NCBI GenBank assembly: GCA_017858055.1
Contig: JAFMCA010000007.1
Coordinates: forward strand, 3,082-67,081
Length of the DNA stretch: 64,000 nucleotides
Direction: 5' to 3'
From: Flavobacteriaceae bacterium
GTDB lineage: Bacteria; Bacteroidota; Bacteroidia; Flavobacteriales; Flavobacteriaceae
Below the pieces are notes generated by a model that saw nothing but the letters and a program-made list of their open reading frames with translations, had not been told where the DNA came from and made no database searches. Positions 8,277 through 27,700 of the stretch are shown here, one piece after another. Positions within the stretch are counted from its first letter, which is position 1; every line of letters begins with the position of its first letter. The translations under genes and the position numbers were made by a program.

Positions 8277-10781
8277 ATGAACAAGCTTTTTCTCATCTCC
8301 ATTGTCTTTTTAATTTCGATTGCATGCCAATCCCCCCTTACTCCTCCTACAGCGGTCCTTTTTAAAATCAACACCTTTGATATGGCCAACAATCAAATGG
8401 AAGTTACTTTTTCGATCACCAATCCCACGGAAACCCTATGGAAGGGCGGCGAATGGTCACTTCATTGGAATCAAATTTCTGGAGCATTACAACCGGAAAG
8501 TTTACCCAATAACATTCAATACACCTTAGTTAATGGTCAGCAATATTTGATTTTAGATTTTGGAAGAGGTCACGATTTAAAGCCAGGGGAAACCAAAACG
8601 TTTGATGTGCTGTTTCGTGGAATAATTAGCAGAGAAGTAATGGGACCCAACGGTTTTTTTGTACACAATGCCGAAACAAATACCAACTTGGATCTAGAAA
8701 GTACGATTGTTTGGAAAACCGCAGCAGGAATTGAAGACCTCAAAATCCCTTCTGCTGAAGACCGTTACACCCAATATGAAGGGTTGGAATTCCTTCCTAA
8801 AAAAGAGCTTCATTGGGTAATTCCTGCACCTAGGATCGAACGGTTTGACAATACTTACCGACCTTATCTAGATGCCCTAACGATCCATTTTGGTTCTTTT
8901 CAAGACCCCGATAATTTTATAATAAACCGTCTACAAGAAGGGGTTAAAACTCGAATTGCTCCAACCCTTGATGAGGATGCCACTATTAAAATCAAAGAAA
9001 ATAAAACTCTAGAAAGCGAAGCCTACCTGCTTCAAATTGACCACACCCAAATTACTATTGAAGCGCACACTTCAAAGGCCGTTTTTTACGCTTTAGAATC
9101 CCTCCATCAAATCCTATTGATCGCTGAAAGAGAAGGGAAGGGAATTCCCATACTACAAATTGAGGATGCTCCACGTTTTCAAAACCGAGGGTTTATGACC
9201 GATATAGCTCGTAACTTTTTCCCCAAGGAGAAGATTTTTCAGATACTGGACTTTATGGCCCTGTATAAACTCAATCGTTTGGATCTGAAACTTACCGATG
9301 ATGAAGGGTGGCGAATTGAAATTCCAGACTTACCAGAGCTCACTCAAGTTGGAGGTAGGAGAGGCTACACTCTAGACGAACGCGATCAATTGATCCCCAT
9401 GTATGGATCCGGCTCAGGAAACCTTCAAAACTCTGGGAGTGGGTATTTATCGGGTGAGGATTTTAAAGCTATATTACGTTATGCGAATCAACGCCATATT
9501 GAAGTGATTCCTCAAATTAGTTTTCCTTCGCACGCTCGAGCAGCAATTGTTGCGATGAAGTCCCGTTATCTTACTCTTATGGAAACGGGTGATCCAACTG
9601 CCGCGGAGGAGTATATGCTTCACGACCCAGACGATCAGAGTACCTACCGTTCTGCTCAGCTGTTTACGGATAATGTAGCTTGTATTTGTGATCCTAGTGC
9701 CTATCGTTTTTACGAAAAAGTAGTTCAAGAAATTAAAACCTATTATACTGAGGTACATTTACCCATGAACGTATTTAATATCGGTGCAGACGAATTGCCC
9801 TATGGTCCTTGGAGAAAATCTCCCAAGTGTGAAACCTACATAGCTGAAAAAAATGAAATTGAAGACCTCGACGATTTGTATAATTACAATCTTCGGTTGC
9901 TCCACAAGATCATCAATGATGTAGGTGCCCAAATGGCCGGTTGGGAAGATGTTCTGCTTATTCACAGTGAAAACGAACAGTCAGAAATCACTATCAATAC
10001 CGAGCTACTGGACTTAGAATTCACGCCCTATGTGTGGAACAACAGTTGGGGTGGCGGCAGAGAGGATATGATCTACCGTCTTGCCAATCAAGGGTTTAAA
10101 GCCATTATGAGTAATTCTTCTGCTTTTTATTTTGATATGACCGATGATCGCGATTTTGAAAATGGGGGGTTCAGTTGGTCGGGATATGTAAATTATCAAG
10201 ATGCATGGGGAACGGAACCACTCAATGTCTTTGCTAATCAAGTTAAACTTGAATCCTTGGGGATCACCGAAGCTACTGTAGCCAAAAAAGAGCAACTAAA
10301 ACCAGAGGCTCGAGAAAATTTTCTCGGGGTTCAATCCCAACTTTGGACAGAAACAGTAAATAGCGAAGTCTGGTTAGATCAACTGTTGATGCCCAATTTG
10401 CTTGTTTTTGCTCAACGGGCTTGGAGCGCAAAAGAGCCTTGGTTAAAGGAACCCACAGCAGATTTACAAAAACCTAAGCTATTAACTGCTTGGAATCGAT
10501 TTACCAATACACTAGGTCAGCGGCAATTCCCCCTATTAAATCAACTTTATGGAGGTATTCAATACGACTTGCCAAAACCCGGAGCACAAATAATTCAAGG
10601 TAAGCTTCATGTACGACAACAATTTCCTGGGCTAGAGATCCATTATTCACTTAATGGAAAAGAACCCACGGCAAAGGATCCTCAATATAAAGAAGCTGTT
10701 GTCGTGCCAGAAAATAGTACGGTAACTTTACGCGTATTTGATTCCCAAAGAAGAGGCGGGAATAGCATTCAACTAAATTAA
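8277..10781 (+). CDS. Glycoside hydrolase family 20 beta-N-acetylhexosaminidase (lipoprotein)
   Basis: Has a lipobox (LISIACQ), the GH20 catalytic-domain motif IEDAPRFQNRGFMTDIARNFF, the D-E acid pair in FNIGADELPYG, and a C-terminal hexosaminidase-type beta domain. Confidence 0.85.
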   Translation: MNKLFLISIVFLISIACQSPLTPPTAVLFKINTFDMANNQMEVTFSITNPTETLWKGGEWSLHWNQISGALQPESLPNNIQYTLVNGQQYLILDFGRGHDLKPGETKTFDVLFRGIISREVMGPNGFFVHNAETNTNLDLESTIVWKTAAGIEDLKIPSAEDRYTQYEGLEFLPKKELHWVIPAPRIERFDNTYRPYLDALTIHFGSFQDPDNFIINRLQEGVKTRIAPTLDEDATIKIKENKTLESEAYLLQIDHTQITIEAHTSKAVFYALESLHQILLIAEREGKGIPILQIEDAPRFQNRGFMTDIARNFFPKEKIFQILDFMALYKLNRLDLKLTDDEGWRIEIPDLPELTQVGGRRGYTLDERDQLIPMYGSGSGNLQNSGSGYLSGEDFKAILRYANQRHIEVIPQISFPSHARAAIVAMKSRYLTLMETGDPTAAEEYMLHDPDDQSTYRSAQLFTDNVACICDPSAYRFYEKVVQEIKTYYTEVHLPMNVFNIGADELPYGPWRKSPKCETYIAEKNEIEDLDDLYNYNLRLLHKIINDVGAQMAGWEDVLLIHSENEQSEITINTELLDLEFTPYVWNNSWGGGREDMIYRLANQGFKAIMSNSSAFYFDMTDDRDFENGGFSWSGYVNYQDAWGTEPLNVFANQVKLESLGITEATVAKKEQLKPEARENFLGVQSQLWTETVNSEVWLDQLLMPNLLVFAQRAWSAKEPWLKEPTADLQKPKLLTAWNRFTNTLGQRQFPLLNQLYGGIQYDLPKPGAQIIQGKLHVRQQFPGLEIHYSLNGKEPTAKDPQYKEAVVVPENSTVTLRVFDSQRRGGNSIQLN

Positions 10782-10788
10782 ATTTATC

Positions 10789-11883
10789 ATGGAAAACAAA
10801 CGTTTACTCTCATTAGACATCTTTAGAGGATTAACCATCATCCTTATGATAATCGTTAACGATCCCGGCTCAGGGGAACATATTTTCGCACCCCTTCGAC
10901 ATGCCGTTTGGAATGGTTTAACCCCTACAGATTATGTATTTCCCAGTTTTTTATTCATTGTTGGGGTTTCGATAGTCCTTTCGATGAACAAACAAAAAGA
11001 AAGTGGAAAAAGTCTGTCAGAGATTACAAAAAAAGTAGTGTTTAGAGCATTGAAAATTTATGCTGTTGGGATTTTCCTTTGGCTTTGGCCGGATTTTAAT
11101 TTTGAAGGCATCCGTTGGGTAGGCGTTTTACCACGTATAGCATTTGTCTATCTGGCTTGTGCCTTATTGTTTTTATACACGAGCAGAAAAACCCAATGGG
11201 TCCTTGGTCTTTTTGGAGTCTTTGCCTACTGGCTTGTCGTCGCTTATCTTCCTATTCCAGGAATTGGTTTTCCAGATTTAAGTATGCCTGATAAAAACTG
11301 GGCAAACTATATTGATAAACTTCTGCTCCCGGGTAGGTTATATAAACATACTTGGGATCCGGAGGGAATTTTAAGTACGATTCCAGCAATTGTTAGCGGC
11401 CTTATAGGCATGTGGGCAGGGTACATTCTCCTTCAAAAAGAGGAGCTAAAAAATCGCCTAAATCAACTGTTCTTTTTTGGAGTAATTCTGATTTTTTTAG
11501 GCGATGTGATGCAATGGTTTTTCCCTTTTAATAAAAGCCTTTGGAGCAGCTCATTTACCTTATTTATGGGAGGGATTGGAATGTTATCTTTGGCTGCATT
11601 AAGTTACTTTTTTGATGTGAAACAAACCCAGTTTCAATTTAAATTTGCTCATGCTTTTGGAGTGAATTCAATAACGGCATATGCACTTTCTAGCCTTCTG
11701 ACGGTAGTATTTTACAGCTCAAAATGGTGGGGGATTTCACTCAGCGGGCAGTTTATGTCCTTTTGGGAACAAATTGGGTTACCCCTTAAACTCGGCTCTT
11801 TGGTTTATGCTTTGCTTTATGTAGGTATTCTTTGGATCCCTGTACAAATTCTCTTTAAAAAGAAAATTTATATCAAACTCTAA
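10789..11883 (+). CDS. Heparan-alpha-glucosaminide N-acetyltransferase-like membrane acyltransferase (DUF1624/DUF5009 type)
   Basis: Has the N-terminal motif RLLSLDIFRGLTIILMIIVN and about 10 TM helices. It starts 8 nt after the GH20 stop. Confidence 0.7.
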   Translation: MENKRLLSLDIFRGLTIILMIIVNDPGSGEHIFAPLRHAVWNGLTPTDYVFPSFLFIVGVSIVLSMNKQKESGKSLSEITKKVVFRALKIYAVGIFLWLWPDFNFEGIRWVGVLPRIAFVYLACALLFLYTSRKTQWVLGLFGVFAYWLVVAYLPIPGIGFPDLSMPDKNWANYIDKLLLPGRLYKHTWDPEGILSTIPAIVSGLIGMWAGYILLQKEELKNRLNQLFFFGVILIFLGDVMQWFFPFNKSLWSSSFTLFMGGIGMLSLAALSYFFDVKQTQFQFKFAHAFGVNSITAYALSSLLTVVFYSSKWWGISLSGQFMSFWEQIGLPLKLGSLVYALLYVGILWIPVQILFKKKIYIKL

Positions 11884-13850: not shown

Positions 13851-15074
13851 ATGAAACATTCAGATTTATTAGCCATTGCGCAACAAACCTCAGGACCAAC
13901 TTATGTTTATGATGCTTCAAAAATTGAATCGCAGTTCAAACGTCTTGAAAATGCATTTTCTGGAGTTGAAAAATTAAAAATCAATTATGCTTGTAAAGCC
14001 TTGTCTAATATTTCGATTTTAAAATACCTTAAAGCATTAGGGTCGGGTTTGGATACCGTTTCTCATCAAGAAGTGTTGCTCGGACTTAAGGCGGGCTTCA
14101 CCCCAGAGGATATTATCTTTACACCCAATGGTGTTTCTCTTGAAGAAATTGAAACAGTTGCCAAATTAGGCGTTCAAATCAATATCGATAACCTTTCCAT
14201 ACTGGAACAATTCGGAACAAAACATCCAAAAGTACCCGTTTGTATTCGCATTAATCCTCATGTTATGGCTGGGGGAAACAGTAACATTTCTGTAGGACAT
14301 ATCGATTCTAAATTTGGAATCTCAATTCACCAAATACCTCATGTTCTTCGTATTGTTGAAAACACCAACATGCACATCAATGGAGTTCACATGCATACAG
14401 GAAGTGACATTTTAGATATTGAGGTTTTTCTTTACGCTTCTGAGATTTTATTCAATACCGCACTCCAATTCAAGGACCTCTCCTTTGTTGACTTTGGCAG
14501 TGGTTTTAAAGTTCCCTATCGTCCGGGAGATATTGAAACCAACATTGAAGAGTTGGGTGAAAAACTTACGAAGCGTTTTAAAGAGTTTTGTAAGACCTAT
14601 GGAAAAACGTTGGAGTTAGCATTTGAACCGGGAAAATTTTTAGTGAGTGAAGCCGGTTATTTTCTCACCAAAGTAAATGCCGTAAAACAAACCACTTCTA
14701 CCGTTTTTGCTCAAATAGATTCTGGTTTCAACCATCTGATCCGCCCGATGCTTTACAATTCATATCACGACATCATCAACCTATCCAATCCTAATGGAAA
14801 AGAGCGTTTTTACACTGTTGTAGGTTATATCTGTGAAACAGATACGTTTGGTAGTAATAGAAAAATTGCAGAAATCTCCGAAGGGAATGTTTTAGTGTTT
14901 AAAAACGCCGGTGCGTATTGCATGACGATGTCTAGCAATTACAACTCTCGTTATCGACCAGCAGAACTCCTTTGGTATAATGGAGAAGCGCATTTGATAC
15001 GCAAACAAGAAACATTTGAGGACTTGATTCAAAATCAGGTACTCATCGACTTTAAAGAAAATATTGAAGCTTAA
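13851..15074 (+). CDS. lysA: Diaminopimelate decarboxylase
   Basis: Has the PLP-lysine motif INYACKA and the motifs HMHTGS, FGSGF and EPGKFLV. The C-terminal beta domain contains GAYCMTMSSNYNSR. Confidence 0.92.
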   Translation: MKHSDLLAIAQQTSGPTYVYDASKIESQFKRLENAFSGVEKLKINYACKALSNISILKYLKALGSGLDTVSHQEVLLGLKAGFTPEDIIFTPNGVSLEEIETVAKLGVQINIDNLSILEQFGTKHPKVPVCIRINPHVMAGGNSNISVGHIDSKFGISIHQIPHVLRIVENTNMHINGVHMHTGSDILDIEVFLYASEILFNTALQFKDLSFVDFGSGFKVPYRPGDIETNIEELGEKLTKRFKEFCKTYGKTLELAFEPGKFLVSEAGYFLTKVNAVKQTTSTVFAQIDSGFNHLIRPMLYNSYHDIINLSNPNGKERFYTVVGYICETDTFGSNRKIAEISEGNVLVFKNAGAYCMTMSSNYNSRYRPAELLWYNGEAHLIRKQETFEDLIQNQVLIDFKENIEA

Positions 15075-16015
15075 AAAAGGGGGGTTAATTGGGTAAGTTT
15101 AGCGTTATAGGTAGCAATAAATTCTTCTATAATCTCCGCTGCTGGAAGGATAGAGTCGATCTGAGCTGCCACTTGACCGATTTCCAATTCTCCTTCAACC
15201 AGGTCTCCTTCAAACATACCCTTTTTAGCACGACCTCGACCCAAGACTTGTTGTAATTTTTCTGGGCTGGCTCCTTCTGCATACAGCTGTTTGATTTTTT
15301 GATAAAAAGGATTTTTTAATAGACGAACGGGGGTTAACTCTTTCAGCGTTAGCTCAGTACTCCCTTCTTCCGCATTGAGTACTTCATGTTTAAAAAGCTC
15401 GTGGGAAGAAGCTTCTGGAGTGGCAACAAATCGAGACCCTACCTGTACCCCATCCGCTCCCAAAGCCAAGGCTGCTAACATTGCAGTCCCACTACCAATT
15501 CCTCCGGCAGCTATCAAAGGAAGGTGGATGGCTTTACGAACCAAAGGAACCAAAGTCATGGTGGTCGTTTCTTCTCTGCCGTTATGCCCCCCTGCTTCAA
15601 AACCCTCAGCAACGATTGCATCGACTCCACATGCTTGGGCTTTTAATGCAAATTTGACTGAACTGACCACATGGACTACGATACACCCTTTCGATTTTAA
15701 ATGTGCAGTCCATAATTTCGGATTTCCTGCTGCAGTGAATACAATCGGTACATTTTCCTGAATGATCACCTCCATCAACAAATCAATCTCTGGATATAGC
15801 AAAGGAACATTAACTCCAAAAGGTTTGCTGGTCGCTTTTTTACATTTTTGGATATGTTCACTTAAAACCTCAGGATACATTGAACCGGCGCCAATAAGTC
15901 CCAAACCTCCTGCGTTACTGACAGCAGATGCAAGTCGCCATCCGCTTGCCCAAACCATTCCAGCCTGAATAATCGGATAGCGAATCCCAAAAAGTTCGGT
16001 CACCCTATTGGCCAT
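15071..16015 (-). CDS. FMN-dependent NAD(P)H oxidoreductase of the nitronate monooxygenase / FabK-like family
   Basis: Has the motifs IRYPIIQAGMVWAS, GGLGLIG and GADGVQVGSRF and no signal peptide. Its ATG overlaps the upstream stop by 1 nt (TAATG at 16015). Confidence 0.8.
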   Translation of the reverse strand: MANRVTELFGIRYPIIQAGMVWASGWRLASAVSNAGGLGLIGAGSMYPEVLSEHIQKCKKATSKPFGVNVPLLYPEIDLLMEVIIQENVPIVFTAAGNPKLWTAHLKSKGCIVVHVVSSVKFALKAQACGVDAIVAEGFEAGGHNGREETTTMTLVPLVRKAIHLPLIAAGGIGSGTAMLAALALGADGVQVGSRFVATPEASSHELFKHEVLNAEEGSTELTLKELTPVRLLKNPFYQKIKQLYAEGASPEKLQQVLGRGRAKKGMFEGDLVEGELEIGQVAAQIDSILPAAEIIEEFIATYNAKLTQLTPLF

Positions 16016-16929
16016 TAAAGGAATTGGTCAACTTTCTTATAGGCCTCAATAACAGCTAGTTCTCCTGCCTTGTCAGGTTGACTATTACCGTGTTCCATAC
16101 CAAGAATTCCCTCAAATCCTCTACCGTGAATGTATTTAAAGATATTGGTGTAATTAATTTCTCCCGTAGTGGGTTCTTTTCTTCCTGGATTATCACCGAT
16201 CTGAAAATAGCCAATCTCCTCCCAACTCTTTTCAATATTCGGTATCAAATTTCCTTCCTGAATCTGCTGATGATAAATATCAAAGAGAATTTTACAAGAC
16301 GGAGAATCAACCGCTTTACAAATTTCATAGGCTTGAGGACTTTCGGATAAAAACAAGCCCGGGTGATCTCTAAAGTTTAAAGGCTCCAATACCATCACTA
16401 TACCATGAGGTTCTAAAAGAGCTGAAGCTTGCTTCAGGCTCTCAACCACATGAGCCGTCTGATACGCCATGTTTTGTCGCAAATCGACATGGCCAGGAAC
16501 CACAGTCATCCATTTCGCGTTTACTCGCTTTGCCACAGGAATTGCTTTTTTGATATAATCTAAAAACTCCTCTCGTAAGGCTTGATCACCACTTGCCAAA
16601 TTTGGTTTTTGCCAATAGATTTGATGGGCTACAAAAACTCCCATTCTCAATCCTCGCTTTGCCATTGTTTGAGCCATTTTTTCTTGCAAAGCCACCTCTC
16701 TATTCCGCATGTCATTATCCTCAAAAGCGGTAAATCCTTGATCCGCCATAAAATTTAGCTGATCAATAGGATCATTACCCACATGATTTCTAAACATTCC
16801 TAAATGAGGGGCATAGGCTAAATTAAAATTGTATTTAGCAGCGCTTTTTTGGGCTCCAAGAGCAGAAGTTGTGGAAAGCATTCCCAGTCCAGTGAGTCCT
16901 GCCAGTTGGGTAAAATTTCTTCTATTCAT
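16015..16929 (-). CDS. Tat-exported xylose-isomerase-like TIM-barrel protein (sugar phosphate isomerase/epimerase, hydroxypyruvate-isomerase-like)
   Basis: Has the twin-arginine signal MNRRNFTQLAGLTGLGMLSTTSALGA. The remainder resembles the AP_endonuc_2 / xylose isomerase-like TIM barrel family (FEDND, MVLEPLN, GMEHG). Confidence 0.8.
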   Translation of the reverse strand: MNRRNFTQLAGLTGLGMLSTTSALGAQKSAAKYNFNLAYAPHLGMFRNHVGNDPIDQLNFMADQGFTAFEDNDMRNREVALQEKMAQTMAKRGLRMGVFVAHQIYWQKPNLASGDQALREEFLDYIKKAIPVAKRVNAKWMTVVPGHVDLRQNMAYQTAHVVESLKQASALLEPHGIVMVLEPLNFRDHPGLFLSESPQAYEICKAVDSPSCKILFDIYHQQIQEGNLIPNIEKSWEEIGYFQIGDNPGRKEPTTGEINYTNIFKYIHGRGFEGILGMEHGNSQPDKAGELAVIEAYKKVDQFL

Positions 16930-16930
16930 T

Positions 16931-18274
16931 TCAAATCATTTTTGTTTTTCCTGGAGTAGGAATTGGATAATTTCCATCGGCATCTGGAAGTGATGGCGGA
17001 GTCGAGTTCCAAGTTACCTCCTCAGGCATAAGGTGTAATTCAGAGTTCAATGCTTCTTCAAAGGTGATTTTCTTTCCTGTGTACGTTGCCATTCGTCCCA
17101 AAATAGCCGTTAATGTACTTTTTGCCCCATTTTCTGCATCGGCAATGACACCCCCACTTCGAATGGAAGCAAACAAACGGTCGTGTTCAACTTGATAGGG
17201 ATTAGGATCTTCACTGTCTCTACTGGGATATTTATAAGTGCTTTCTCCATTCAAATTTGTAATTTCTCCTTTTCCTATTTCTACCGTCCCTTGTGTCCCT
17301 TGGAACACTTCGTCTACCCTTCTCATTGTTCCCGGGATATGACGACACTGGCTCGCAATTACCGCTCCATTTGCATAGGTAAATTCAACAAAGTGATGAT
17401 CGAAGATTTCCCCATGGTCTTTTCCGTTCCGTACCTGTCGTCCTCCCATACCTTGAGCTGAAATAGGATAATCTCCTATAAACCAATTCGCTACATCTAT
17501 ATTGTGTATGTGTTGCTCTAAGATGTGATCCCCACAAAGCCAGTTAAAATAATACCAGTTTCGCATTTGATATTCTAATTCAGATTGCCCTGCCTGACGC
17601 GCTTTTACCCAAACACCTGCGTCATTCCAATACACCTGTCCGCTCCGTATTTGACCAATAGCCCCCGAATCTATCCGCTGCTTTAAATCAATATACTTGG
17701 ATTGATAATGACGTTGTAACCCGACGACTACATTCAATTTTTTTGCTTTTGCAATTTTGGCAGTCTCCAAAACCTTTCGGATTCCTACTGGATCTGTAGC
17801 AACAGGTTTCTCCATAAATACGTGTTTACCATTCGCGATGGCGTATTCAAAATGGTAGGGACGGAAGCCAGGAGGGGTGGTCAAGATCACCACATCAGCA
17901 AGATCGATAGCTTTTTTGTAAGCGTCAAACCCGACAAATCGATTTTTTTCTTTTACATCAATTTTTTTCTGTCCCTCGAAGTGTTCTTGAATTCCTTTTA
18001 AGCTTCTATCAACTCGATCTGCAAAAGCATCTGCCATTGCAACCAGTTCCACATTTTCATCTGCAGTTAAAGCTTGAACCGCTGCTCCTGATCCACGACC
18101 ACCGCAGCCCACCAAAGCAAGTTTAAGTTTCTGTTCTCCATGAACATTTGCCATTCGCTCCACGCCCATAGGTACAGTTAGAAAAGCACCCGTAGCCATT
18201 GCAGTTTGCTGCACAAATTGACGGCGTGATTGATTTTGATTTTTTTGTTTGTTGTTTTTCATGATTTCTGTCAT
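16931..18274 (-). CDS. Tat-exported Gfo/Idh/MocA-family NAD(P)-dependent oxidoreductase
   Basis: Has the twin-arginine signal SRRQFVQQTAMATGAFLTVPMG, the Rossmann motif LALVGCGGRGSGAA and the EKP motif VFMEKPVA. It starts immediately after the upstream stop (0-nt gap). Confidence 0.85.
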   Translation of the reverse strand: MTEIMKNNKQKNQNQSRRQFVQQTAMATGAFLTVPMGVERMANVHGEQKLKLALVGCGGRGSGAAVQALTADENVELVAMADAFADRVDRSLKGIQEHFEGQKKIDVKEKNRFVGFDAYKKAIDLADVVILTTPPGFRPYHFEYAIANGKHVFMEKPVATDPVGIRKVLETAKIAKAKKLNVVVGLQRHYQSKYIDLKQRIDSGAIGQIRSGQVYWNDAGVWVKARQAGQSELEYQMRNWYYFNWLCGDHILEQHIHNIDVANWFIGDYPISAQGMGGRQVRNGKDHGEIFDHHFVEFTYANGAVIASQCRHIPGTMRRVDEVFQGTQGTVEIGKGEITNLNGESTYKYPSRDSEDPNPYQVEHDRLFASIRSGGVIADAENGAKSTLTAILGRMATYTGKKITFEEALNSELHLMPEEVTWNSTPPSLPDADGNYPIPTPGKTKMI

Positions 18275-19240
18275 TTATTGTATTGATTCGTATTTCCAAT
18301 ATTTTTTCTGTTCTTCTTCTGAAGGGGTTATCAGCGGACGTACCACTCGAAATCCAACAAAAGGTGCATCGGTATGCCACCACTTACTTTTTGGAATTTG
18401 TGGGTCGCGTTTTTTCCATTGTTTTGTTGAGGGGCGTCGTGCTGCTGAACGCAAACGGCTTGGACTATCCATCCATGACCCCCCACGTACCGCCTTGGGA
18501 TATACTTTATCGCCTTCCACCCACGGATCTTTAACACCGTCTTTTCGACTGCTATACTCAGTAGGTACATATTGATCCAAGGTCCACTCTGCAACATTTC
18601 CATGCATGTCATGTAATCCCCATGCATTCGGTTTTTTAGTACCTACCTCCTGATATTTATCATTACTGTTCTCTGCATACCACGCATATTCATCGAGTAG
18701 ACTTGGATCCTCCCCAAAGTGGTAAGCGGTTTCTGTGCCCGCTCTACAAGCGTATTCCCATTCGGCTTCTGTAGGCAAGCGGTAAAAATGACCCGTCATG
18801 GCAGACAGCCATTCACAGAACTTCACGGCAGCCAACTGAGTCATGCAGATGGCTGGAAAATTATCGACTCCCATTCCAAAACTCATTTCCACATAAGGTG
18901 TAGTTGCTCCAGAGACCGCATCCACGTCTATCTGTACTTCAGAATCTGAAGTTTTGGAATTTTGATTGGCATCCAATTCTCTACTCACAAAAAGATTATA
19001 AAAATCCCAAGTGACCTCATATTGACCCATCCAAAAATCACTCACAACTACCTCATGCTGTGGGCTTTCATCACCAAAGTGGCCCGGCTCTGTTTTAGGG
19101 CTCCCCATTTTAAAGGACCCTCCTGAGATAAATTGCATGGGCATGAGTTGGCTTAGTCCCTGAATTTTTTCAGTGTAATTTTGTTGGGCATTGCTCAGAA
19201 AAGCAGTAGCCAGGAGTACTATTGAAGCTAAAATTTTCAA
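18275..19240 (-). CDS. Exported formylglycine-generating-enzyme (SUMF1) fold protein lacking the catalytic Cys pair
   Basis: Has a Sec signal (LLATAFLSNAQQ) and FGE-sulfatase family motifs GGSFKMGSP, VTWDFY, RLPTEAEWEYACRAG, HGNVAEWTLD and RGGSW. The only possible start is a TTG (an in-frame stop lies 4 codons upstream). Confidence 0.85.
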   Translation of the reverse strand: MKILASIVLLATAFLSNAQQNYTEKIQGLSQLMPMQFISGGSFKMGSPKTEPGHFGDESPQHEVVVSDFWMGQYEVTWDFYNLFVSRELDANQNSKTSDSEVQIDVDAVSGATTPYVEMSFGMGVDNFPAICMTQLAAVKFCEWLSAMTGHFYRLPTEAEWEYACRAGTETAYHFGEDPSLLDEYAWYAENSNDKYQEVGTKKPNAWGLHDMHGNVAEWTLDQYVPTEYSSRKDGVKDPWVEGDKVYPKAVRGGSWMDSPSRLRSAARRPSTKQWKKRDPQIPKSKWWHTDAPFVGFRVVRPLITPSEEEQKKYWKYESIQ

Positions 19241-19620
19241 TTTAATTCTTTGTTAATTTTTAGAACTAACCACAATGTAGAAAAGAATTTACGAATCCTT
19301 AAAAAAAATTATAACTATTTAATTGATTCCAACTGATTTTAAACCTCATTGTCTTAATCTGAAGAGGCATTAAACATTTAAAGTTAGTCCCAATATGATC
19401 TTTTTTATGTTTGTTCAAAAAAAAAAACGAATTGTTTAACCCTTTTGAAACCTCAATAAATTCTGGGGTTTTGAAATATTTTAACAAAATTTTAAAAAAA
19501 AAGTGTGAGTTTATTTTGCAGCTAAAGGCTTTTTGGTACTTTTATATGTTGTGACTATTATTAAAGTAAAACCATTTTTTAATTTTCTAAACTAACTAAC
19601 AAACAATTAATACCAAGCAT

Positions 19621-22600
19621 ATGAAATTTAAACAAACATTAAACTTTGATTTGAGAGGGATTTTTTCCTTGCTTTTAATCTTTGTGATTAGCAGTGCTTT
19701 CGCTCAAAAATCAATCTCTGGTTCCGTTTCAGACGAAACGGGTCCTTTACCAGGCGTAACCATCGTCGAAAAAGGAACAACAAACGGTACCACTACCGAT
19801 TTCGATGGAAACTTTACCATCACCGTTGCTGATGATAATGCAACGCTTGTCCTCTCCTACCTTGGGTTTCTTACTCAAGAGGTAGCCGCTGGTTCAGATT
19901 CATTTGATATCACTATGGAATCTGGATCAGATGAGTTGGACGAAGTAGTTGTTACAGGTTATGGTACACAACGAAAAGCAACCTTAACGGGTTCCATCGC
20001 AACCATTGGTGGTGAAGATCTTGAAAAGTCTTCTTCACCTAACTTAGGAACAGCACTTGCTGGAAAAGTGGCCGGTTTGTATATCGATACTGGAAATGGA
20101 GCACCAGGTGCTGACAACCCAGCTATTCGTGTGCGTGGAACAAACACATTTAATAACTCCTCTGCTCTTATCGTAATTGATGGAATTCCCAACCGAGCGG
20201 GTGGTTTAGCTCGTATTAACCCAGCAGACATTGAGAGTATTTCGGTACTTAAAGATGCATCTGCGGCTATTTACGGGGCTCGAGCTGCGAATGGAGTTAT
20301 CCTTATTACCACAAAACGAGGTAAAGAAGGGAAAGCTAGAGTAAAACTTACTTCCAACTACGGTTGGCAAAACTTTACTACAGTACCTGACATGTTAACT
20401 GGTGCTGAATATATGGACCTTGTAAACTTATTAAATGTTTACAAATTACCAGTAGGGGAATGGGCAGCAGCAAATGCTGTTCGAGGACAACCTTTTACCC
20501 GTCCTAATGGAGAAGTATTAAACCCTACCTATTCTTCCGACCGGATTCAAAATACTGCTGCTGGAGCTGACCTTTGGAATTATCCTGATACAGATTGGAT
20601 GGAAGAAGTTCAAAGAAAAAACGCTCCAACCACACGTCAGAACGTTCAAATTTCTGGAGGTGATGAGAATGTAACGTATTTAGCTTCTGCTGGATTCCTT
20701 CGTCAAGAGGTAAACTTCAAAAATGCACCGAAAGGATTTACTCAATACGACTTGCGTTTAAACTTAGATGCAAAAATCAACGACTTTTTAAGTGTAGATG
20801 TTGGGCTTTACTCTAGACAAGAAGAAAACCTTACCTCTACTAACGCACCCTCTGGTGTATTCAATGATTTAGTTCGTCAATACCCTTGGTTCCCAGCTTA
20901 CTGGCCAACAGGTGAGTACGGTCCTGATATCGAAAACGGGAACAACCCTGCAATTCGAGTTACGGATGAGCCTGGTTACAACAACAGAAGTACAAACTTT
21001 GTACAAAGTAATATAGGAGTGAACTTTAAAGTTCCTGGAGTTGAAGGTTTATTGATTCGTGGAAACGTTTCTTATGACAAAATGAACTTTGATCAAAAAC
21101 TATGGCAACGTCCTTGGGAGTTGTATACTTGGGATGGAGTAAACAAAAACTCTTCAGGTTTAACAGCTGCTCAAAGAGGACCTGGTGATCCAAGTTTAAC
21201 ACAAGATCATACTACACTTACCGATATTACTGCAACGATCAACGCTTCTTATGAAAAAGATTTGGGAGATCACTACTTTAAAATACTCGGTGGGATCACA
21301 CGTGAAGAATCCGAACAAAGCTACATGAGAGCATTTAAAAGATTTTTCCTTTCCAATGACTTAGATCAGTTGAGTTTTGGTGGTCAGGATGGTCAATTCA
21401 GTCAAGGTACTGGATATGAAGTTGCTCGATTAAACTATTACGGTCGTGTAAATTACAACTTTCAAGAAAAGTATCTTTTAGAATTACTTTTCCGTTATGA
21501 CGGATCGTATTTATTCCCAGAAGAAACTCGCTACGGATTTTTCCCTGGAGTTTCTGCAGGTTGGGTATTATCTGAAGAATCATTTTTTGGCGACGGACTT
21601 GGCTTCATCGATTATTTCAAGTTGAAAGGATCCTGGGGACAATTGGGTAACGACAACGTTGCACCGTTTCAGTTCTTAGCTTCTTATGGATTCTCTGCTA
21701 CGAGTTTAGGAGATGTAATTACTACAGCATATGAAACTAAAGTACCTAACCCAAATATTACTTGGGAAACTCAAACCTCTTCCAACTTTGGATTTGATTT
21801 ACGGGCTTTAAATAACCGACTTTCTTTTGGATTTGAATTCTTTAGAAACTTGAGAGAGGATATCTTAACCTTACCAAACAAAACACTTCCTTCCTATAGT
21901 GGTATTACACCACCTGCACAAAACATAGGGGAATTTGAAAACAGAGGTTATGAAATCACTTTAGGATTAAATGGAGAGACGACTTCTGGACTTACTTACA
22001 ATATTGCATTTAATGTAAGTGATTCCAACAACAAACTTCTTTTTGTAGACGAACCTGATTTAGCAGACCGTCCATGGCAGAGAGAAACCGGTGGAGAAAT
22101 AGGAAGACCCTTGCGTTATGAATTTGCAGGAGTATTCCGTTCACAAGCTGAAATCGACTCTGAAACTTTAGACTACAGTGCTGTTGCACCACTTCTTAAG
22201 CCTGGGGATGCTCGAGTAAATGACATCAACGGAGATGGTAAAATTACTCCTGCAGATAGAACTCGTGTAGGTGGAAGTGCTTTTGCTGATACCCAATTTG
22301 GTTTCAATACAGCGATGACTTACAAAAACTTTGACTTTAATATGTACTGGAATGGTGCTGCTGGAGGTTACAACACCTACGAGTGGAGCTTTATGTCTGG
22401 AACATTAGCAAACGTTCAACGTGATGTATACACTCGAGCTTGGTCTTTAGACAACCCGAATGCACCCTACCCACGTTTAGCTGATCGTGGTGACCAGTGG
22501 TATTCAGGTCAAACAGATTACGCTTTAATTACTCGTGATTTTGTAAGGTTAAAAACACTTGAAATTGGTTATAACTTTACTGATGCTGTTACAAGTAAAA

Positions 22601-22797
22601 TCAGTGCAGAAAGCATTCGTCTTTCAGTTACTGGTACAAACTTGATCACGATAACTGACTTCCCTTTTGATCCTGAAGTTCTTCAATCAGGAGCAGATGT
22701 GAATAATACAAGAAATGCTGGTGGTGGTGCCGTGAACAACGGTGGTGCTTACCCATTACTCAAGACAATAATAACCGGAATACAAATAACCTTTTAA
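19621..22797 (+). CDS. SusC/RagA-family TonB-dependent outer-membrane transporter
   Basis: Has a signal peptide and an N-terminal CarboxypepD_reg domain (ISGSVSDETGPLPGVTIVEKGTTNGTTTDFDGNF). The plug/TonB-box region contains DEVVVTGYGTQRK and the barrel is about 1050 aa with a terminal aromatic (QITF). No STN domain is present. Confidence 0.95.
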   Translation: MKFKQTLNFDLRGIFSLLLIFVISSAFAQKSISGSVSDETGPLPGVTIVEKGTTNGTTTDFDGNFTITVADDNATLVLSYLGFLTQEVAAGSDSFDITMESGSDELDEVVVTGYGTQRKATLTGSIATIGGEDLEKSSSPNLGTALAGKVAGLYIDTGNGAPGADNPAIRVRGTNTFNNSSALIVIDGIPNRAGGLARINPADIESISVLKDASAAIYGARAANGVILITTKRGKEGKARVKLTSNYGWQNFTTVPDMLTGAEYMDLVNLLNVYKLPVGEWAAANAVRGQPFTRPNGEVLNPTYSSDRIQNTAAGADLWNYPDTDWMEEVQRKNAPTTRQNVQISGGDENVTYLASAGFLRQEVNFKNAPKGFTQYDLRLNLDAKINDFLSVDVGLYSRQEENLTSTNAPSGVFNDLVRQYPWFPAYWPTGEYGPDIENGNNPAIRVTDEPGYNNRSTNFVQSNIGVNFKVPGVEGLLIRGNVSYDKMNFDQKLWQRPWELYTWDGVNKNSSGLTAAQRGPGDPSLTQDHTTLTDITATINASYEKDLGDHYFKILGGITREESEQSYMRAFKRFFLSNDLDQLSFGGQDGQFSQGTGYEVARLNYYGRVNYNFQEKYLLELLFRYDGSYLFPEETRYGFFPGVSAGWVLSEESFFGDGLGFIDYFKLKGSWGQLGNDNVAPFQFLASYGFSATSLGDVITTAYETKVPNPNITWETQTSSNFGFDLRALNNRLSFGFEFFRNLREDILTLPNKTLPSYSGITPPAQNIGEFENRGYEITLGLNGETTSGLTYNIAFNVSDSNNKLLFVDEPDLADRPWQRETGGEIGRPLRYEFAGVFRSQAEIDSETLDYSAVAPLLKPGDARVNDINGDGKITPADRTRVGGSAFADTQFGFNTAMTYKNFDFNMYWNGAAGGYNTYEWSFMSGTLANVQRDVYTRAWSLDNPNAPYPRLADRGDQWYSGQTDYALITRDFVRLKTLEIGYNFTDAVTSKISAESIRLSVTGTNLITITDFPFDPEVLQSGADVNNTRNAGGGAVNNGGAYPLLKTIITGIQITF

Positions 22798-22803
22798 TTA
22801 AAC

Positions 22804-24687
22804 ATGATGAGAATGAAGAAGATTTTATTAAAAATTGTTGGTGGATTTATGTTTGCTTCGGCAATTATAAGTTGCCAGGATGACTTTTTAAGTACGACCC
22901 CTTTAAGCGAAATTGCTGAATCCAATGTTTGGTCCTCCTCAAAATTAGCTGAAGCAGCTGTACTTGATTTATATCAAGGTACTTGGGCTGGGACATTAAC
23001 CCGGGAAGAAACTACAGACGCATTTACAGACCAGGCGGTATTTACCCACCCTGGACGAGGTGTAGATGGCTATACTGAAGGAAAAATGAACCCTTCAGGA
23101 GGGTATATGGATATGCAATGGTTCAGTTGGACTCAGCTTTATCCGTTTATCAGAAGTGCAAATATTGCTATTCAAAAACTGACCGAAAATGAAGGAGGTC
23201 TGGAAGCTGGACTTGCTAAGCGACTTTTAGGAGAAGCTTATTTCATGAGAGGATACTTTTTCACTCAATTGATGAGACAGTATGGAGGGATTGTTCTTTT
23301 AACAGAACCTTTAACTCTTGAGAGCGAATCTGAAAATCCTAGATCTAGTTTTGATGCAACTATTAAACAAATTATCTCTGATATCGATCAGGCGATAACA
23401 ATGTTGGCCGATGCACCAGTTGATAAAGCACGAGCAAACAAATTAACTGCTCTCGCTTTAAAATCTAGAGTGTTGACTCACGCTGCTAGTGATTTACACG
23501 AGCCTTCAAAAGCTTCTAGTGTTTCTACCTTGGCATCTTTCGGAAACAAAGATTTAATAGGGTACACGAGCGGTTCGCAAGACCAACGTTGGCAAGCAGC
23601 CAAAGCAGCGTCTAAAGCACTCTTAGATGCAACTACCGGTTATAAATTAGATTATGCTGCACCTGCTAGTTTTGATGAAGCAAAACAAAACTATGAAGAC
23701 ATTTGGCTTCAAGGAGACAAGAACCAAGATTTCATCTGGGGTCGTCTTATCGAAGGATTTGGTTACGGTTCAAGAACCTATCCCGGTGGTAACGAATGGT
23801 CACAAGGACCTGGAATGGTTGCATTGTATCACGGTCCTAACGGATACCATGAGTGGGCTGGAACTACTCCTACCGAAGCTTTAGCTTCTAAGTATGCTTT
23901 AGCAGACGGTACTCCTTTTGATTGGAGTAACCCTGAGCACGCAAAAGACCCTTACGGAAATCGTGAAGCACGTTTCTATTCTACACTTCTTTTTGACGGA
24001 GCACCATGGAAACAAAGAACAAGTGATGTAGTTAAATTTGACTTGTTTAACGAATTACAAACGGGATATTACACTTTTGCTGATGGAACTATTGTAAATG
24101 GTGTTGATACACGTCAAGGTCCAATTGAAGACTGGAACGGCTCTAGAACTGGATATTATTTCAAGAAATTTGCAGATCCTTATTTACCTGCATCTTGGCC
24201 TAATAACCTTCAAAAAGTAGATGCGCCTTATTTACGTTATACCGAGGTTTTATTAAACTATGTTGAGGCAAACCTCAATTTAGGTGATGAGGCTGAAGCA
24301 AAAGCATGGTTAAACAAGCTGCGTTTCCGTAATGGACTTCCTGCTGTAACTGAATCTGGATCGGCTCTTGTTGAAATTTACAAAAGAGAACGTGATAAAG
24401 AATTGGTAAATGAGGATGCACGTTTGTTCGATATGAAACGTTGGTTAGAAGGACCTTATTCATTGAACAAGCAAGTTCAACAGACCTTAATCCAAGCAAC
24501 ACAAAAAGCTGGAAGTTCTATGACTCCTGGAAACTATAGAAAAAGTTCTGCTGATTTTGATTACAAATACACTCCTACAAACATTGTATTTGAAAATAGA
24601 ATTTGGAGAGATCACGTTTATTTCATGCCAATACCACAAAATGAAATCGACAGAGACCCCTCATTACTTCAGAATCCAGGATACTAA
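22804..24687 (+). CDS. SusD/RagB-family nutrient-binding outer-membrane lipoprotein
   Basis: It starts 6 nt after the SusC stop and has a lipobox (AIISCQDDF). Its size, TPR-like helical N-half and motifs (YFMRGYFF, RAELAF-like ERDKELVNEDARLFDMKRW) are typical of SusD. Confidence 0.9.
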   Translation: MMRMKKILLKIVGGFMFASAIISCQDDFLSTTPLSEIAESNVWSSSKLAEAAVLDLYQGTWAGTLTREETTDAFTDQAVFTHPGRGVDGYTEGKMNPSGGYMDMQWFSWTQLYPFIRSANIAIQKLTENEGGLEAGLAKRLLGEAYFMRGYFFTQLMRQYGGIVLLTEPLTLESESENPRSSFDATIKQIISDIDQAITMLADAPVDKARANKLTALALKSRVLTHAASDLHEPSKASSVSTLASFGNKDLIGYTSGSQDQRWQAAKAASKALLDATTGYKLDYAAPASFDEAKQNYEDIWLQGDKNQDFIWGRLIEGFGYGSRTYPGGNEWSQGPGMVALYHGPNGYHEWAGTTPTEALASKYALADGTPFDWSNPEHAKDPYGNREARFYSTLLFDGAPWKQRTSDVVKFDLFNELQTGYYTFADGTIVNGVDTRQGPIEDWNGSRTGYYFKKFADPYLPASWPNNLQKVDAPYLRYTEVLLNYVEANLNLGDEAEAKAWLNKLRFRNGLPAVTESGSALVEIYKRERDKELVNEDARLFDMKRWLEGPYSLNKQVQQTLIQATQKAGSSMTPGNYRKSSADFDYKYTPTNIVFENRIWRDHVYFMPIPQNEIDRDPSLLQNPGY

Positions 24688-24707
24688 TTTTTTAGTTCAC
24701 TGAATTG

Positions 24708-24740
24708 AAAAAAACCCTGTATATAATGCAGGGTTTTTTT
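24708..24740 (+). terminator. Intrinsic terminator downstream of the SusC/SusD pair
   Basis: AAAAAAA-CCCTGTAT-ata-ATGCAGGG-TTTTTTT forms an 8-bp stem with one G-U pair, followed by a 7-nt T-run. It lies inside the TTG-initiated N-terminal extension proposed by the ORF track. Confidence 0.7.
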
Positions 24741-24761
24741 ATTTTTGAAAAAACAATTTTT

Positions 24762-27700
24762 ATGAAGAAGCTCCTTTATTTACTTAGTGTAGTTGCAATT
24801 GTAGTTGGATGTAGTGCGGAAAAGAAACAATTCTCAAAGTTAAACGCTTCTCAAACGAATATTACTTTTGCAAATACCCTGTTCGAAACAAATAAAAATA
24901 ATTATTTCACCTATCCATATATGTATCTGGGAGGTGGTGTTGCAGCAGGTGATTTTAATAATGATGGACTTGAAGATTTATTCTTCACAGGGAATATGGT
25001 TCCCAATAAATTATACCTCAACAAAGGGGATTTCAAATTTGAAGACATCAGTGAAACAGCTGGTATTGCAGGAGACGATCGTTGGTATGCAGGTGTAACC
25101 TTAGTCGATATAAATAAAGATGGCTATTTAGACATCTATTGTTCTGTTTCTGGTGAAAAAGAACCTCATAACAACGTTTTATATCTCAACAATAAAGACA
25201 ATACTTTTTCTGAGGTAGCCCAAGCATACGGAATAGACGATAACGGTTATAGTATGCATTCCACTTTTTTTGATTACGATAAAGATGGAGATCTTGACTT
25301 GTACGTAGCGAACTACCCCCCTACCAGTTTTAAAGCCCCTGTAGACTATTACAAATACATGATTGAAAATCATGAAGCCATAGACTCTGACCATCTCTAT
25401 AGAAATGATGGAGAAACATTCGTTGATGTTACTGAAGAAGCTGGGATCAGTAACTTTGGTTTGAGCTTGGGTGTAGTTGCCTCTGATTTTAATAACGACG
25501 GTTATCCTGACCTTTACATTTCCAATGACTTTAACGCTCCAGACTATATGTACCTCAATAATGGGGACGGTACTTTTACAAATGATATTTTAAACTCGTT
25601 CCGTCAGACTTCCTTTTTTGGAATGGGTGTAGATGCTTCTGATTTTAATAATGACGGTTGGGTTGATTTATTTCAATTGGACATGAATGCTGCTGATAAT
25701 TTTAGATCTAAAGCTAATATGTCCTCAATGAATCCAGAGGTGTTCTATCAATCGGTCTCGCTTGGTTTACATCATCAATACATGCAAAACTCTTTGCAAA
25801 TAAATCAGGGCAATTTAAACGGGAACAGTCCCGCATTTAGTAATGTAGCTCGCTGGGGAGGGGTATCTTCTACCGATTGGAGTTGGGGAGGAATTTTTGC
25901 TGATTTTGATAACGATGGATGGAAAGATTTATACGTTACAAACGGAATCCGAAGAGATGTGAATAACAAGGATTTTTACAATGAAAATCGAGCTTTCTTT
26001 GATAAAATGGAAAATGATCCAAATTATAAAAATAAAGAGGATGAAGTGGGTCTATTATCCTACCTAGAAAGAATGCCCTCAGAAAAACTAACCAACTATT
26101 TATATCAAAACAACAGAGAAAATGGCTTTAAAAATAAAAGCATGGAATGGGGATTAGATGAAAAAACTTTCTCAAATGGTGTTGTGTATTCGGATCTAGA
26201 TAACGATGGGGATTTAGACTTGGTGGTAAATAATTTAGAAGATGTAGCGAGTGTATATCAAAACAATAGTATCAATACCAATTCTATCGGTTTTCAACTC
26301 ATTGGAAAGAACAATGAAACACCCTTAGGTACACGAATTCATATTGTAGCCGATGGACAATATCAAATGCAAGAATACAACCTCAGTAGAGGCTATTTAT
26401 CTTCCGTATCCCCTCGTCTGCATTTCGGCTTGGGAACTTCTACAAAGCTTGAAGAGGTTATCATCGAGTGGCCGGACGGGAAAAAAACTCGAGTAGAGAA
26501 TCCTCAAGTGAATGCCTATACTACTGTAGATTACAATAAACAAACTGCATTCTTTGAAAAAGAAAAATCTCTGCCCTCTCTAAAAGTTTTTCAAACAGTT
26601 GTGCAAAAAGACCCCTTTATTCATGAGGAAAATCCTTACAATGATTTTAAAGAAGAAGTATTATTACCACATAAAAATTCAACTCTTGGCCCTGCCCTTG
26701 CGGTTGGTGATTTAAACAATGATTCGAAACAGGATTATATTGTAGGAGGAGCGATAGGTCAACCCGCTTCAATGTATATTCAACAAAATGATGGAACCTT
26801 TGAAAAGGTCATGGTGCCCATATTCGAAAAAGATAAATTTTATGAAGACCTCGGAATTCAAATATTTGATGCCGATGGAGATGGCGATCAGGATCTCTAT
26901 TTCGCAAGTGGAGGGAATGAATTTAATGAGGGTTCTCAAGGATATGAAGATCGATTTTATGAAAATTTAGGAAAACTAAATTTCCGAAGAGATACGGAGG
27001 CTATTCCGGATACTCGAATCAGTGGCCTGGATGTAAGCGTCAATGATTTTGATCACGATGGGGATTTGGATTTATTTGTCGGAGGACGATTAAGTCCAAA
27101 AAAATACCCCTACCCGACTAGTTCAAGACTATTAGAAAACAGAAGTGCTGAAGGTAAGATTCAATTTGTGGATATTACAAAAGAAAAAAATCCTGAACTT
27201 GAAAACATTGGTTTAGTCACAGCTTCCGAATGGATTGATTTCGATGGAGATTCATGGGAGGATTTAATCGTTGTTGGAGAATGGATGTCTATCCGAATGT
27301 TTAAAAACAATCAGGGAACTTTTACAGAAGTAACGAATCAAATTTACCAACCCGAGCACAGGGGTTGGTGGTTCGACCTCAAAAAAGGAGATTTTGATCA
27401 GGATGGAGATATGGATTTAATTGTAGGTAATTTAGGGTTAAATTACAAATACCAAGCTTCTTTAGATAAACCCTTTAAGGTCTATTTGAATGATTTTGAT
27501 AAAAATGCAACCTATGATATTGTCCTGAGTTATCAATCCGATGACACTGAATATCCTGTGCGCGGAAGGCAGTGTTCCTCTGAGCAAATGCCTGCTATAA
27601 AAGAAAAATTCAAAAATTACAACAGCTTTGCCAGTGCTTCGTTGGAGGAAATTTATTCTGACAAAATGTTAGCCGAATCCTTAAAATATGAAATCACCGA

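Follow-up and report, generated by a model that had tools for sequence, protein, structure and literature searches.

We analysed a stretch of 64,000 nucleotides from a Flavobacteriaceae bacterium (GenBank assembly GCA_017858055.1, contig JAFMCA010000007.1), which has a G+C content of about 39% and is referred to below as the window. On its minus strand we found a module of three exported proteins: a protein with the fold of the formylglycine-generating enzyme (FGE), a Gfo/Idh/MocA dehydrogenase (Gfo) and a xylose-isomerase-like TIM barrel (TIM). The module is conserved and undescribed in the searchable literature, and the FGE-fold protein is its most informative component. We lean towards the view that the three proteins form a periplasmic redox module in which the FGE-fold partner would be flavinylated and would reoxidise the NAD(P) of the dehydrogenase.

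A wider claim is put forward more tentatively. The FGE fold may be a so far unrecognised carrier of covalent flavin mononucleotide (FMN) installed by ApbE, and thus the missing acceptor that links Tat-exported, NAD(P)-loaded Gfo enzymes to c-type cytochromes and the respiratory chain. This would apply to Bacteroidota, Rhodothermota, Balneolota and the lineages with PSCyt1 fusions described below, with a dedicated ApbE paralogue acting on the site variant D-A-[IV]-T-R-P-[ST] in most of them.

Conservation of the exported module

The first-pass annotation of this region had combined four consecutive open reading frames (ORFs) of the minus strand into one operon and interpreted it as a periplasmic route for oxidative processing of glycosides imported by a divergent SusC/SusD pair. 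The underlying observations were confirmed (Table 1). The stop codon TAA of the FGE-fold gene directly precedes the ATG of the Gfo gene with 0 nt in between (caaTAAATGaca), one base separates the TGA of the Gfo gene from the ATG of the TIM gene (attTGAaATGaat), and the TIM gene overlaps the fourth gene by 1 nt (cttTAATGgcc). Twin-arginine motifs are present in Gfo (SRRQFVQ) and TIM (NRRNFTQ), in both cases with a hydrophobic stretch and then an AxA-like site after the motif; the first protein, the FGE-fold protein, has a Sec signal and the fourth has no signal peptide. Family assignments were upheld by Pfam (FGE-sulfatase, 4.4e-42; GFO_IDH_MocA, N- and C-terminal domains; AP_endonuc_2, 4.7e-35; NMO, 4.1e-66). 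Tight junctions by themselves prove little. That the grouping goes beyond chance follows from synteny, which is conserved in 164 loci.

Loci of relatives with 48–92% identity were collected, 80 from species genomes and 80 from metagenomes; 164 loci were scored, and neighbours were assessed with tblastn and by clustering all ORFs against one another. The two independent locus collections agree on the picture of linkage. The named organisms belong to Flavobacteriaceae, Cyclobacteriaceae, Chitinophagaceae, Saprospiraceae, Balneolaceae and Rhodothermales. Clustering yielded four recurrent families, Gfo in 157 loci, the FGE-fold protein in 120, TIM in 70 and ApbE in 46, with the next best family in at most 11. 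An FGE-fold gene lies within 400 nt upstream of the Gfo gene on the same strand in 102 of the 140 loci with enough upstream DNA. Where at least 5 kb were available on both sides (76 loci), 60 loci had the FGE-fold partner and 22 had ApbE; TIM was present in 39 and never without the partner. Considered earlier to be an unexplained extra component, the FGE-fold protein is instead the tightest partner of Gfo (102/140 loci, compared with 39/76 for TIM).

The interpretation as a conserved exported module, with Tat signals on both Gfo and TIM, therefore held with respect to the FGE-fold protein, Gfo and TIM, which recur across the 164 loci, and failed for the fourth gene and for SusC/SusD. Adjacency to SusC/SusD is limited to the nearest relatives (L004-6, L009); elsewhere MnmA, galactose genes or others are found. 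Throughout the 164 loci the module has no conserved association with SusC/SusD, glycoside hydrolases, transporters or regulators. SusC/SusD and FG-GAP/ASPIC proteins were both rejected as conserved partners, their linkage being confined to some lineages.

Gfo scored above the cut-off for PF01408, PF22725 and PF02894. It contains the Rossmann motif GCGGRG, the residues E155-K156-P157 and a C-terminal PDxxGxYPxPxPG tail, all of which are invariant or nearly so in the family. In the HMMER alignment to 4n54 its residues E253 and H257 align with D172 and H176 of inositol dehydrogenase, and both positions are conserved. The subfamily comprises proteins of roughly 440 residues in 950 representative clusters at E<=1e-30. 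Among its long representatives we found no fusions of Gfo and FGE genes; the extra length consists of caspase domains or of an N-terminal part without assignment. Three of them (P0192, P0196, P0257) are Tat-type Gfo proteins of about 680 residues with a C-terminal caspase (Peptidase_C14, E 1.9e-18 to 5.9e-22).

TIM passed the superfamily model PF01261 with 121.9 bits against a cut-off of 31.1. It is closest to hydroxypyruvate and 2-oxo-tetronate isomerases, with both models below cut-off (TIGR03234, 130 vs 353 bits; NF043033, 129 vs 325), and its best PDB match is 3ngf (4e-23). Because its scores lie under the equivalog cut-offs, TIM was not accepted as a member of Hyi or OtnI. We propose that it acts as a keto-sugar isomerase or epimerase on the product of the dehydrogenase.

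The export signals differ between the partners. The arginine pair is invariant among 35 diverse members of the Gfo family, and 151 of 168 orthologues of Gfo and 59 of 68 orthologues of TIM have a Tat-like motif; Gfo is thus predicted to be exported by way of twin-arginine translocation (Tat). In contrast, the signal of the FGE-fold protein (MKILASIVLLATAFLSNA/QQ) is of the Sec type with neither a lipobox nor an arginine pair, and 114 of 116 FGE-fold partners are without a Tat-like motif (present in just 2/116). Sec for the partner and Tat for Gfo and TIM would fit cofactor loading after export in the first case and before export in the second.

A candidate flavinylation site and its links to ApbE and haem c

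The closest PDB sequence match of the FGE-fold protein is PvdO (5hha, 4e-22, 27% identity). An AlphaFold model built from a diverse alignment reached a predicted local distance difference test (pLDDT) of 87.3 and a predicted TM-score (pTM) of 0.88. Foldseek returned PvdO first (TM 0.64/0.78), followed by a Treponema surface protein, true FGEs and PorK; matches to FGE structures had E values of about 1e-15, which places the protein in the FGE-sulfatase fold. The catalytic cysteine pair of FGE (motif GGS(F/W)xCxxxxC) is absent. The corresponding segments read GGSWMDSPSRLRS and RGGSWMDSPSRLRS, compared to GGSFLCNASYCASYR with the cysteine pair in the true FGE at locus L013. A role as catalytic FGE was rejected, since both copper-binding cysteines are replaced (WMDSPSRLRS).

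ApbE transfers FMN from flavin adenine dinucleotide (FAD) to a threonine or serine in the periplasm and recognizes the motif D-x-x-[S/T]-G-A-[S/T] (PMC12052999). Residues 107 to 113 of the FGE-fold protein, D-A-V-S-G-A-T, are a perfect seven-residue match, and from this match T113 is the predicted site of FMN attachment. Of 123 FGE-fold partners 18 have the strict motif, compared with only 2 of 1011 other neighbouring ORFs, and it was found neither in Gfo (0/164) nor in TIM (0/69). Across 110 partners the site consists of D (106), [AG], [VILM], [ST] at position 110 (103), [RGK], [PA], [ST] at position 113 (109), any residue, [PQ] and Y (109). Within the FGE-fold, Gfo and TIM proteins, D107..[ST]110..[ST]113 is the sole conserved skeleton of the type [DE]xx[ST]xx[ST]. 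As neither Gfo nor TIM has such a conserved skeleton or the strict motif, both were rejected as ApbE targets. In the AlphaFold model the region around the motif (residues about 90–128) is coil with a pLDDT of 67–80.

A gene for ApbE itself (PF02424, 1.6e-62) lies close to the module in many relatives. We detected it by tblastn in 51 of the 164 loci, compared to a naive expectation of about 1%. Its arrangement varies: some operons have the order ApbE-FGE-GFO, others FGE-GFO-ApbE-TIM (L147, L166), and convergent or divergent arrangements occur as well. Where an ApbE gene is adjacent, the partner carries the variant D-A-[IV]-T-R-P-[ST] without exception (39 of 39). The canonical form x-[GS]-A-[ST] was found in 23 of the 70 partners without adjacent ApbE and in none of the 39 with it (Fisher p=1.1e-5, not corrected for phylogeny). 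Loci with the canonical form are essentially those of Flavobacteriaceae, the window included. This distribution would fit a dedicated ApbE that serves the variant motif and a housekeeping ApbE that serves the canonical one. Where the dedicated gene was lost, the site may have shifted to the canonical motif used by the housekeeping enzyme.

Relatives also connect the partner with haem c. In L132 (1.5e-29), L153 (8.5e-16), L160 (3.8e-30) and L161 (5e-08), all of them from metagenomes, the partner directly upstream of Gfo has one or two PSCyt1 cytochrome c domains, which contain CxxCH, fused to its N-terminus. A c-type haem lipoprotein resembling Tll0287 is encoded directly upstream of the partner in L063, L115, L133 and L152 (the two scanned scored 3e-22 in L133 and 4e-24 in L063), and a dihaem cytochrome c gene abuts the Gfo gene in L079. 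By these fusions and neighbours the FGE-fold protein is assigned to a chain of electron transfer, and together the links to ApbE and cytochrome c seen in relatives point to electron transfer.

Some further proteins were observed in the same surroundings. L040 and L042 (8511-11570, plus strand) encode a protein of 1019 residues with DUF7133, HEAT and cytochrome c regions and a canonical DEFTGAS, located between ApbE and the TIM barrel, and L031 has a related ORF; such proteins may be a second class of candidate ApbE substrates. A YceI-like gene (PF04264, 1.2e-05) is found in L025, L033, L040, L042, L086, L026 and L012, and in most of these it is the immediate upstream neighbour of the gene for the FGE-fold protein. 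Polyisoprenoids and quinones are ligands of YceI proteins, and the neighbour may be a further link to electron transport; the window contains no YceI homologue. In the more distant loci L150, L151 and L155 the Gfo gene beside ApbE precedes a gene for a lipoprotein whose core, GNCTDFHSLF, reads as transglutaminase-like in the sequence; an apparent deacetylase of the PIG-L type comes next. The FGE-fold partner is absent from the flanks of L150 and L155, and in L151 it accompanies a second paralogue of Gfo.

Proposed mechanism and alternative explanations

For the proposed redox module we envisage the following course. Gfo would fold around NAD(P) in the cytoplasm, leave through Tat and oxidise a hydroxyl group of a sugar-like substrate with the bound cofactor. 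The FGE-fold protein would be exported unfolded through Sec, and ApbE, presumably encoded elsewhere in the genome, would place FMN on Thr113 of the DAVSGAT loop in the periplasm. In a presumed complex of the two proteins the FMN would accept hydride from Gfo-bound NAD(P)H and relay electrons to cytochromes of the c type and into the respiratory chain, whereby the exported cofactor would be recycled. The Tat-exported TIM would then isomerise or epimerise the keto product.

Several observations weigh against this mechanism. Every locus with an adjacent ApbE gene has R-P in place of G-A in the partner, a variant that is only a putative ApbE substrate; published mutagenesis describes only a halving of flavinylation for G-to-A and A-to-V changes (PMC12052999). 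PorK, an unrelated FGE-fold protein, has T..Y..M.F in common in the aligned stretch; part of the conservation of the loop could accordingly be structural. To our knowledge no flavin-binding FGE-fold protein has been described. A further neighbour with the canonical motif is present in L040 and L042. No ApbE homologue is encoded in the 64-kb window; marine Flavobacteriaceae have Na+-NQR, which a housekeeping ApbE presumably accompanies, and we presume that this genome has an ApbE elsewhere. In five loci (L072, L122, L138, L150, L155) ApbE is next to Gfo with no partner in the flank, and 38 of the 140 loci have no upstream partner, including Maribacter-type loci with 64–69% identity.

An alternative, close to the earlier interpretation, is that Gfo produces a 3-keto-glycoside from glycans imported by SusC/SusD and TIM cleaves it by elimination, with the FGE-fold protein as an accessory. 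We regard this as unlikely. Pairs of Gfo and a xylose-isomerase-like TIM do act in this manner in the BT2156-2160 and DgpA/BC systems, DgpA is among the PDB matches of Gfo, the NCBIfam models for glycoside, disaccharide and levoglucosan 3-dehydrogenases match Gfo weakly, and both the window and L009 have a divergent SusC/SusD. However, the model for the BT_2158-type glycoside 3-dehydrogenase (NF058561) gave Gfo 46.4 bits compared to a curated cut-off of 750 and covered residues 16-228 only, that is the N-terminal half, on which grounds membership in that family was rejected. TIM is nearest to the isomerases named above and not to known 3-keto-glycoside lyases. SusC/SusD is not conserved beyond close relatives and neither hydrolase, transporter nor regulator is conserved with the module, and 55–60% identity across classes of Bacteroidota suggests a core rather than a glycan-specific function. 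Hints at the substrate from gene context are weak and lineage-restricted: galactokinase (GalK) in 9 Flavobacteriaceae loci, an aldose epimerase in 5, and DUF1080 3-keto-disaccharide hydrolases, which speak for this alternative, in 11 of 164 loci, one of them at a distance of 3 nt behind the Gfo gene. None of the window ORFs scanned against Pfam (181-28064), the four genes included, contained DUF1080. Such a substrate and TIM chemistry can coexist with an electron-transfer role of the FGE-fold partner.

The FGE-fold protein could also be a non-redox accessory, for instance a C-type-lectin-like binding protein or scaffold, with a loop conserved for structural reasons, a fortuitous SGAT, and ApbE and cytochromes that serve other proteins. 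Non-catalytic reuse of the fold is known from PorK, as the structural protein PorK/GldK, and from the variable protein of T. denticola; the partial loop pattern of PorK, the lack of the canonical G-A in ApbE-adjacent partners and the second canonical-motif protein beside ApbE in L040 and L042 agree with this explanation as well. It is nevertheless improbable in view of the linkage to ApbE in 51 of 164 loci and in several arrangements, the absence of another conserved neighbour with a candidate site, the fusion of cytochrome c to the partner itself, and the restriction of the canonical motif to partners without adjacent ApbE.

Still less probable, in our estimate, is a redox-neutral Gfo that reduces and reoxidises its NAD(P) in each cycle like glucose-fructose oxidoreductase (GFOR), for which a second sugar is the acceptor, or like GH109/GH4 enzymes, which pass through oxidation, elimination and reduction. 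An external electron acceptor would then be dispensable, and the partner and its flavin would at most rescue enzyme trapped in reduced form. Redox neutrality is the sole established mode of periplasmic Gfo enzymes and was proposed for BT2158, and GFOR and GH109 are among the distant PDB matches. Both match in the Rossmann half alone: GFOR aligned to the Gfo family profile with E of about 1e-12 to 4e-12, and GH109 (alpha-N-acetylgalactosaminidase 2ixa), not matched by the single sequence at E<=0.001, aligned to the profile with E 1e-7 over residues 42-207 only, and an assignment of Gfo to GH109 was rejected. The conserved ApbE and the haem c fusions and neighbours would moreover be left unexplained. 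That the four genes are no functional unit and are just packed in a compact genome is hardly credible: tight junctions are frequent in Flavobacteriaceae and the unrelated fourth gene is coupled equally tightly, but this explanation is contradicted by synteny, as the FGE-GFO pair, with or without TIM, is kept across Flavobacteriia, Cytophagia, Chitinophagia, Saprospiria, Balneolales, Rhodothermales and PSCyt1-type loci.

If the redox module with a flavinylated partner is true, it would answer how exported, bound NAD(P) is recycled, which is an admitted gap. It would add a new fold to the substrates of ApbE and suggest a relaxed or alternative recognition motif, and a redox role could be suggested for cofactor-less FGE-fold proteins such as PvdO. 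Thousands of genes named 'formylglycine-generating enzyme required for sulfatase activity' would then be unrelated to sulfatase maturation. Periplasmic Gfo/Idh/MocA dehydrogenases abound in Bacteroidota, the present subfamily alone accounting for 950 representative clusters, and are also numerous in Planctomycetota and Verrucomicrobiota.

Neighbouring genes and comparison with known systems

Table 1. Positions of the module genes, their motifs and adjacent features in the window
Feature	Position	Strand	Basis
FGE-fold (PvdO-like) periplasmic protein, 321 residues, TTG start, Sec signal	18275..19240	-	Pfam FGE-sulfatase PF03781, 4.4e-42
Sec-type signal peptide of the FGE-fold protein, residues 1-18	19187..19240	-	read from translation
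ApbE flavinylation motif D107-A-V-S-G-A-T113 in the FGE-fold protein (candidate site)	18902..18922	-	gat gcg gtc tct gga gca act
Gfo/Idh/MocA dehydrogenase, 447 residues, predicted Tat export	16931..18274	-	Pfam, NCBIfam, 4n54 alignment, family alignment
Twin-arginine motif SRRQFVQ of the dehydrogenase, residues 16-22	18209..18229	-	translation, orthologue conservation
Xylose-isomerase-like TIM barrel, 304 residues, predicted Tat export	16015..16929	-	PF01261, 4.7e-35
Twin-arginine motif NRRNFTQ of the TIM barrel, residues 2-8	16906..16926	-	translation
FabK, FMN-dependent enoyl-ACP (acyl carrier protein) reductase II, cytoplasmic	15071..16015	-	PDB 4iql match; TAATG translational coupling
Divergent intergenic region between module and SusC, 380 bp, presumed promoters	19241..19620	.

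The fourth gene had been included in the module as an FMN oxidoreductase. We named it FabK because the match to a structure from Bacteroidota is decisive: P. gingivalis FabK (4iql) aligns with 410 bits and E 5.5e-122 over residues 3-308, and other FabK structures reach about 1e-70. The equivalog cut-off of TIGR03151 was missed (307.2 vs 453.1 bits); this model appears to be tuned to the Firmicutes-type FabK. FabK is located downstream of TIM only where Gfo is at least 77% identical, that is in 5 of 164 loci, all from close relatives. One relative with 83% identity has GH127 and GH2 genes in its place, and in the window FabK is flanked by lysA and sucC. As a cytoplasmic FabK orthologue with so restricted a linkage it was rejected as a module member and is a co-transcribed housekeeping passenger outside the conserved module. 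Membership is redrawn with FabK and SusC/SusD excluded and with ApbE included in relatives.

In the intergenic region upstream of the module a scan for promoter and terminator consensus sequences gave no higher signal than shuffled background. Divergent from the module, positions 19621-28064 of the plus strand encode SusC, SusD and an FG-GAP/UnbV_ASPIC protein of 1119 residues. FG-GAP/ASPIC proteins are found near the module in some Flavobacteriaceae (L001-3, L004-6) and in L025 and L041, and not generally. Farther away (8277-11883, plus strand) a GH20 beta-hexosaminidase gene is followed after a gap of 8 nt by a gene for a membrane protein of the HGSNAT_cat family, and the pair is also present in L004 and L007. 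The latter protein resembles NagX, a putative transmembrane acetyltransferase proposed for glucosamine utilisation (PMC9007349). Positions 1209-2791, between ctaA and an ABC transporter, contain a gene for a PRiA4_ORF3-like protein (1.3e-18) and, on the opposite strand, an ORF of 353 residues without a Pfam match at E<=1e-5.

In relatives two further gene contexts of Gfo were seen. In L013, L016, L017, L019 and L020 (Maribacter, Kriegella, Ulvibacterium, Pseudozobellia and relatives) Gfo is 64–69% identical and without an upstream partner, and next to it come genes for a sulfatase, a true FGE (with the cysteine pair) and a galactokinase in downstream order, which hints at a sulfated-galactose context in these lineages. 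Downstream of Gfo in L014, L015, L097, L098 and L099 lies a gene for an esterase-like lipoprotein, followed by one for a DUF1501 protein and one for a large protein that contains CxxCH twice and may be of the DUF1549/DUF1553 type; we take the pair of DUF1501 and DUF1549/DUF1553-type proteins to be Planctomycete-style, here in Flavobacteriaceae.

With SUMF1/FGE the FGE-fold protein shares the fold, and N/G/D residues resembling the Ca site as well as the RLPTEAEWEYA core are kept. It differs in the replaced cysteine pair, whereas the genuine C..C FGE beside a sulfatase in L013-L020 is without the loop motif. The nearest solved structure, PvdO of Pseudomonas aeruginosa (5hha), is likewise a periplasmic FGE-fold protein without the FGE cysteines; it is needed for the periplasmic oxidation of dihydropyoverdine to pyoverdine. 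In contrast to the protein studied here, PvdO has no DAVSGAT motif in the aligned loop, no pairing with Gfo and no reported cofactor.

The cluster BT2156-BT2160 of Bacteroides thetaiotaomicron is similar in that a periplasmic Gfo with a Tat signal is clustered with an IolE-like TIM barrel (PMC8121099). It has neither an FGE-fold partner nor ApbE, and contains instead a DUF1080 hydrolase, a second Gfo of cytoplasmic type and a SusR regulator. Liu et al. (2021, PMC8121099) named 'another as yet unidentified sugar' as the acceptor that regenerates the cofactor of BT2158. Zymomonas mobilis GFOR is also a periplasmic, Tat-exported Gfo/Idh/MocA enzyme with tightly bound NADP, but its cofactor is recycled by a second sugar and no partner is needed, and the similarity to the Gfo of the window is confined to the Rossmann half.

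The flavinylated electron-transfer proteins served by ApbE, such as the FMN-bind proteins NqrC/RnfG, PplA and DUF2271 (Meheust et al. 2021, PMC8238504; reviewed in PMC12052999), resemble the FGE-fold protein in Sec export, the loop motif, apbE in the gene clusters of relatives and haem or redox neighbours. They differ from it in fold, as the putative carrier of the module has an FGE/C-type-lectin-like fold, and most members of its family carry the R-P variant. FGE-fold or Gfo partners of flavinylation are mentioned neither in the text of these two publications nor in the portion of the supplementary tables of PMC8238504 that was available to us, and no link between FGE, Gfo and ApbE was found in the searchable literature. 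LacABC, ThuAB and the complexes of FAD-containing sugar dehydrogenases with cytochrome c correspond to the proposed module in that periplasmic sugar oxidation is wired to the respiratory chain by a dedicated subunit. In those systems the catalytic subunit is itself a flavoprotein, whereas here the catalytic subunit is an NAD(P)-type Gfo and the flavin would reside on a separate FGE-fold subunit.

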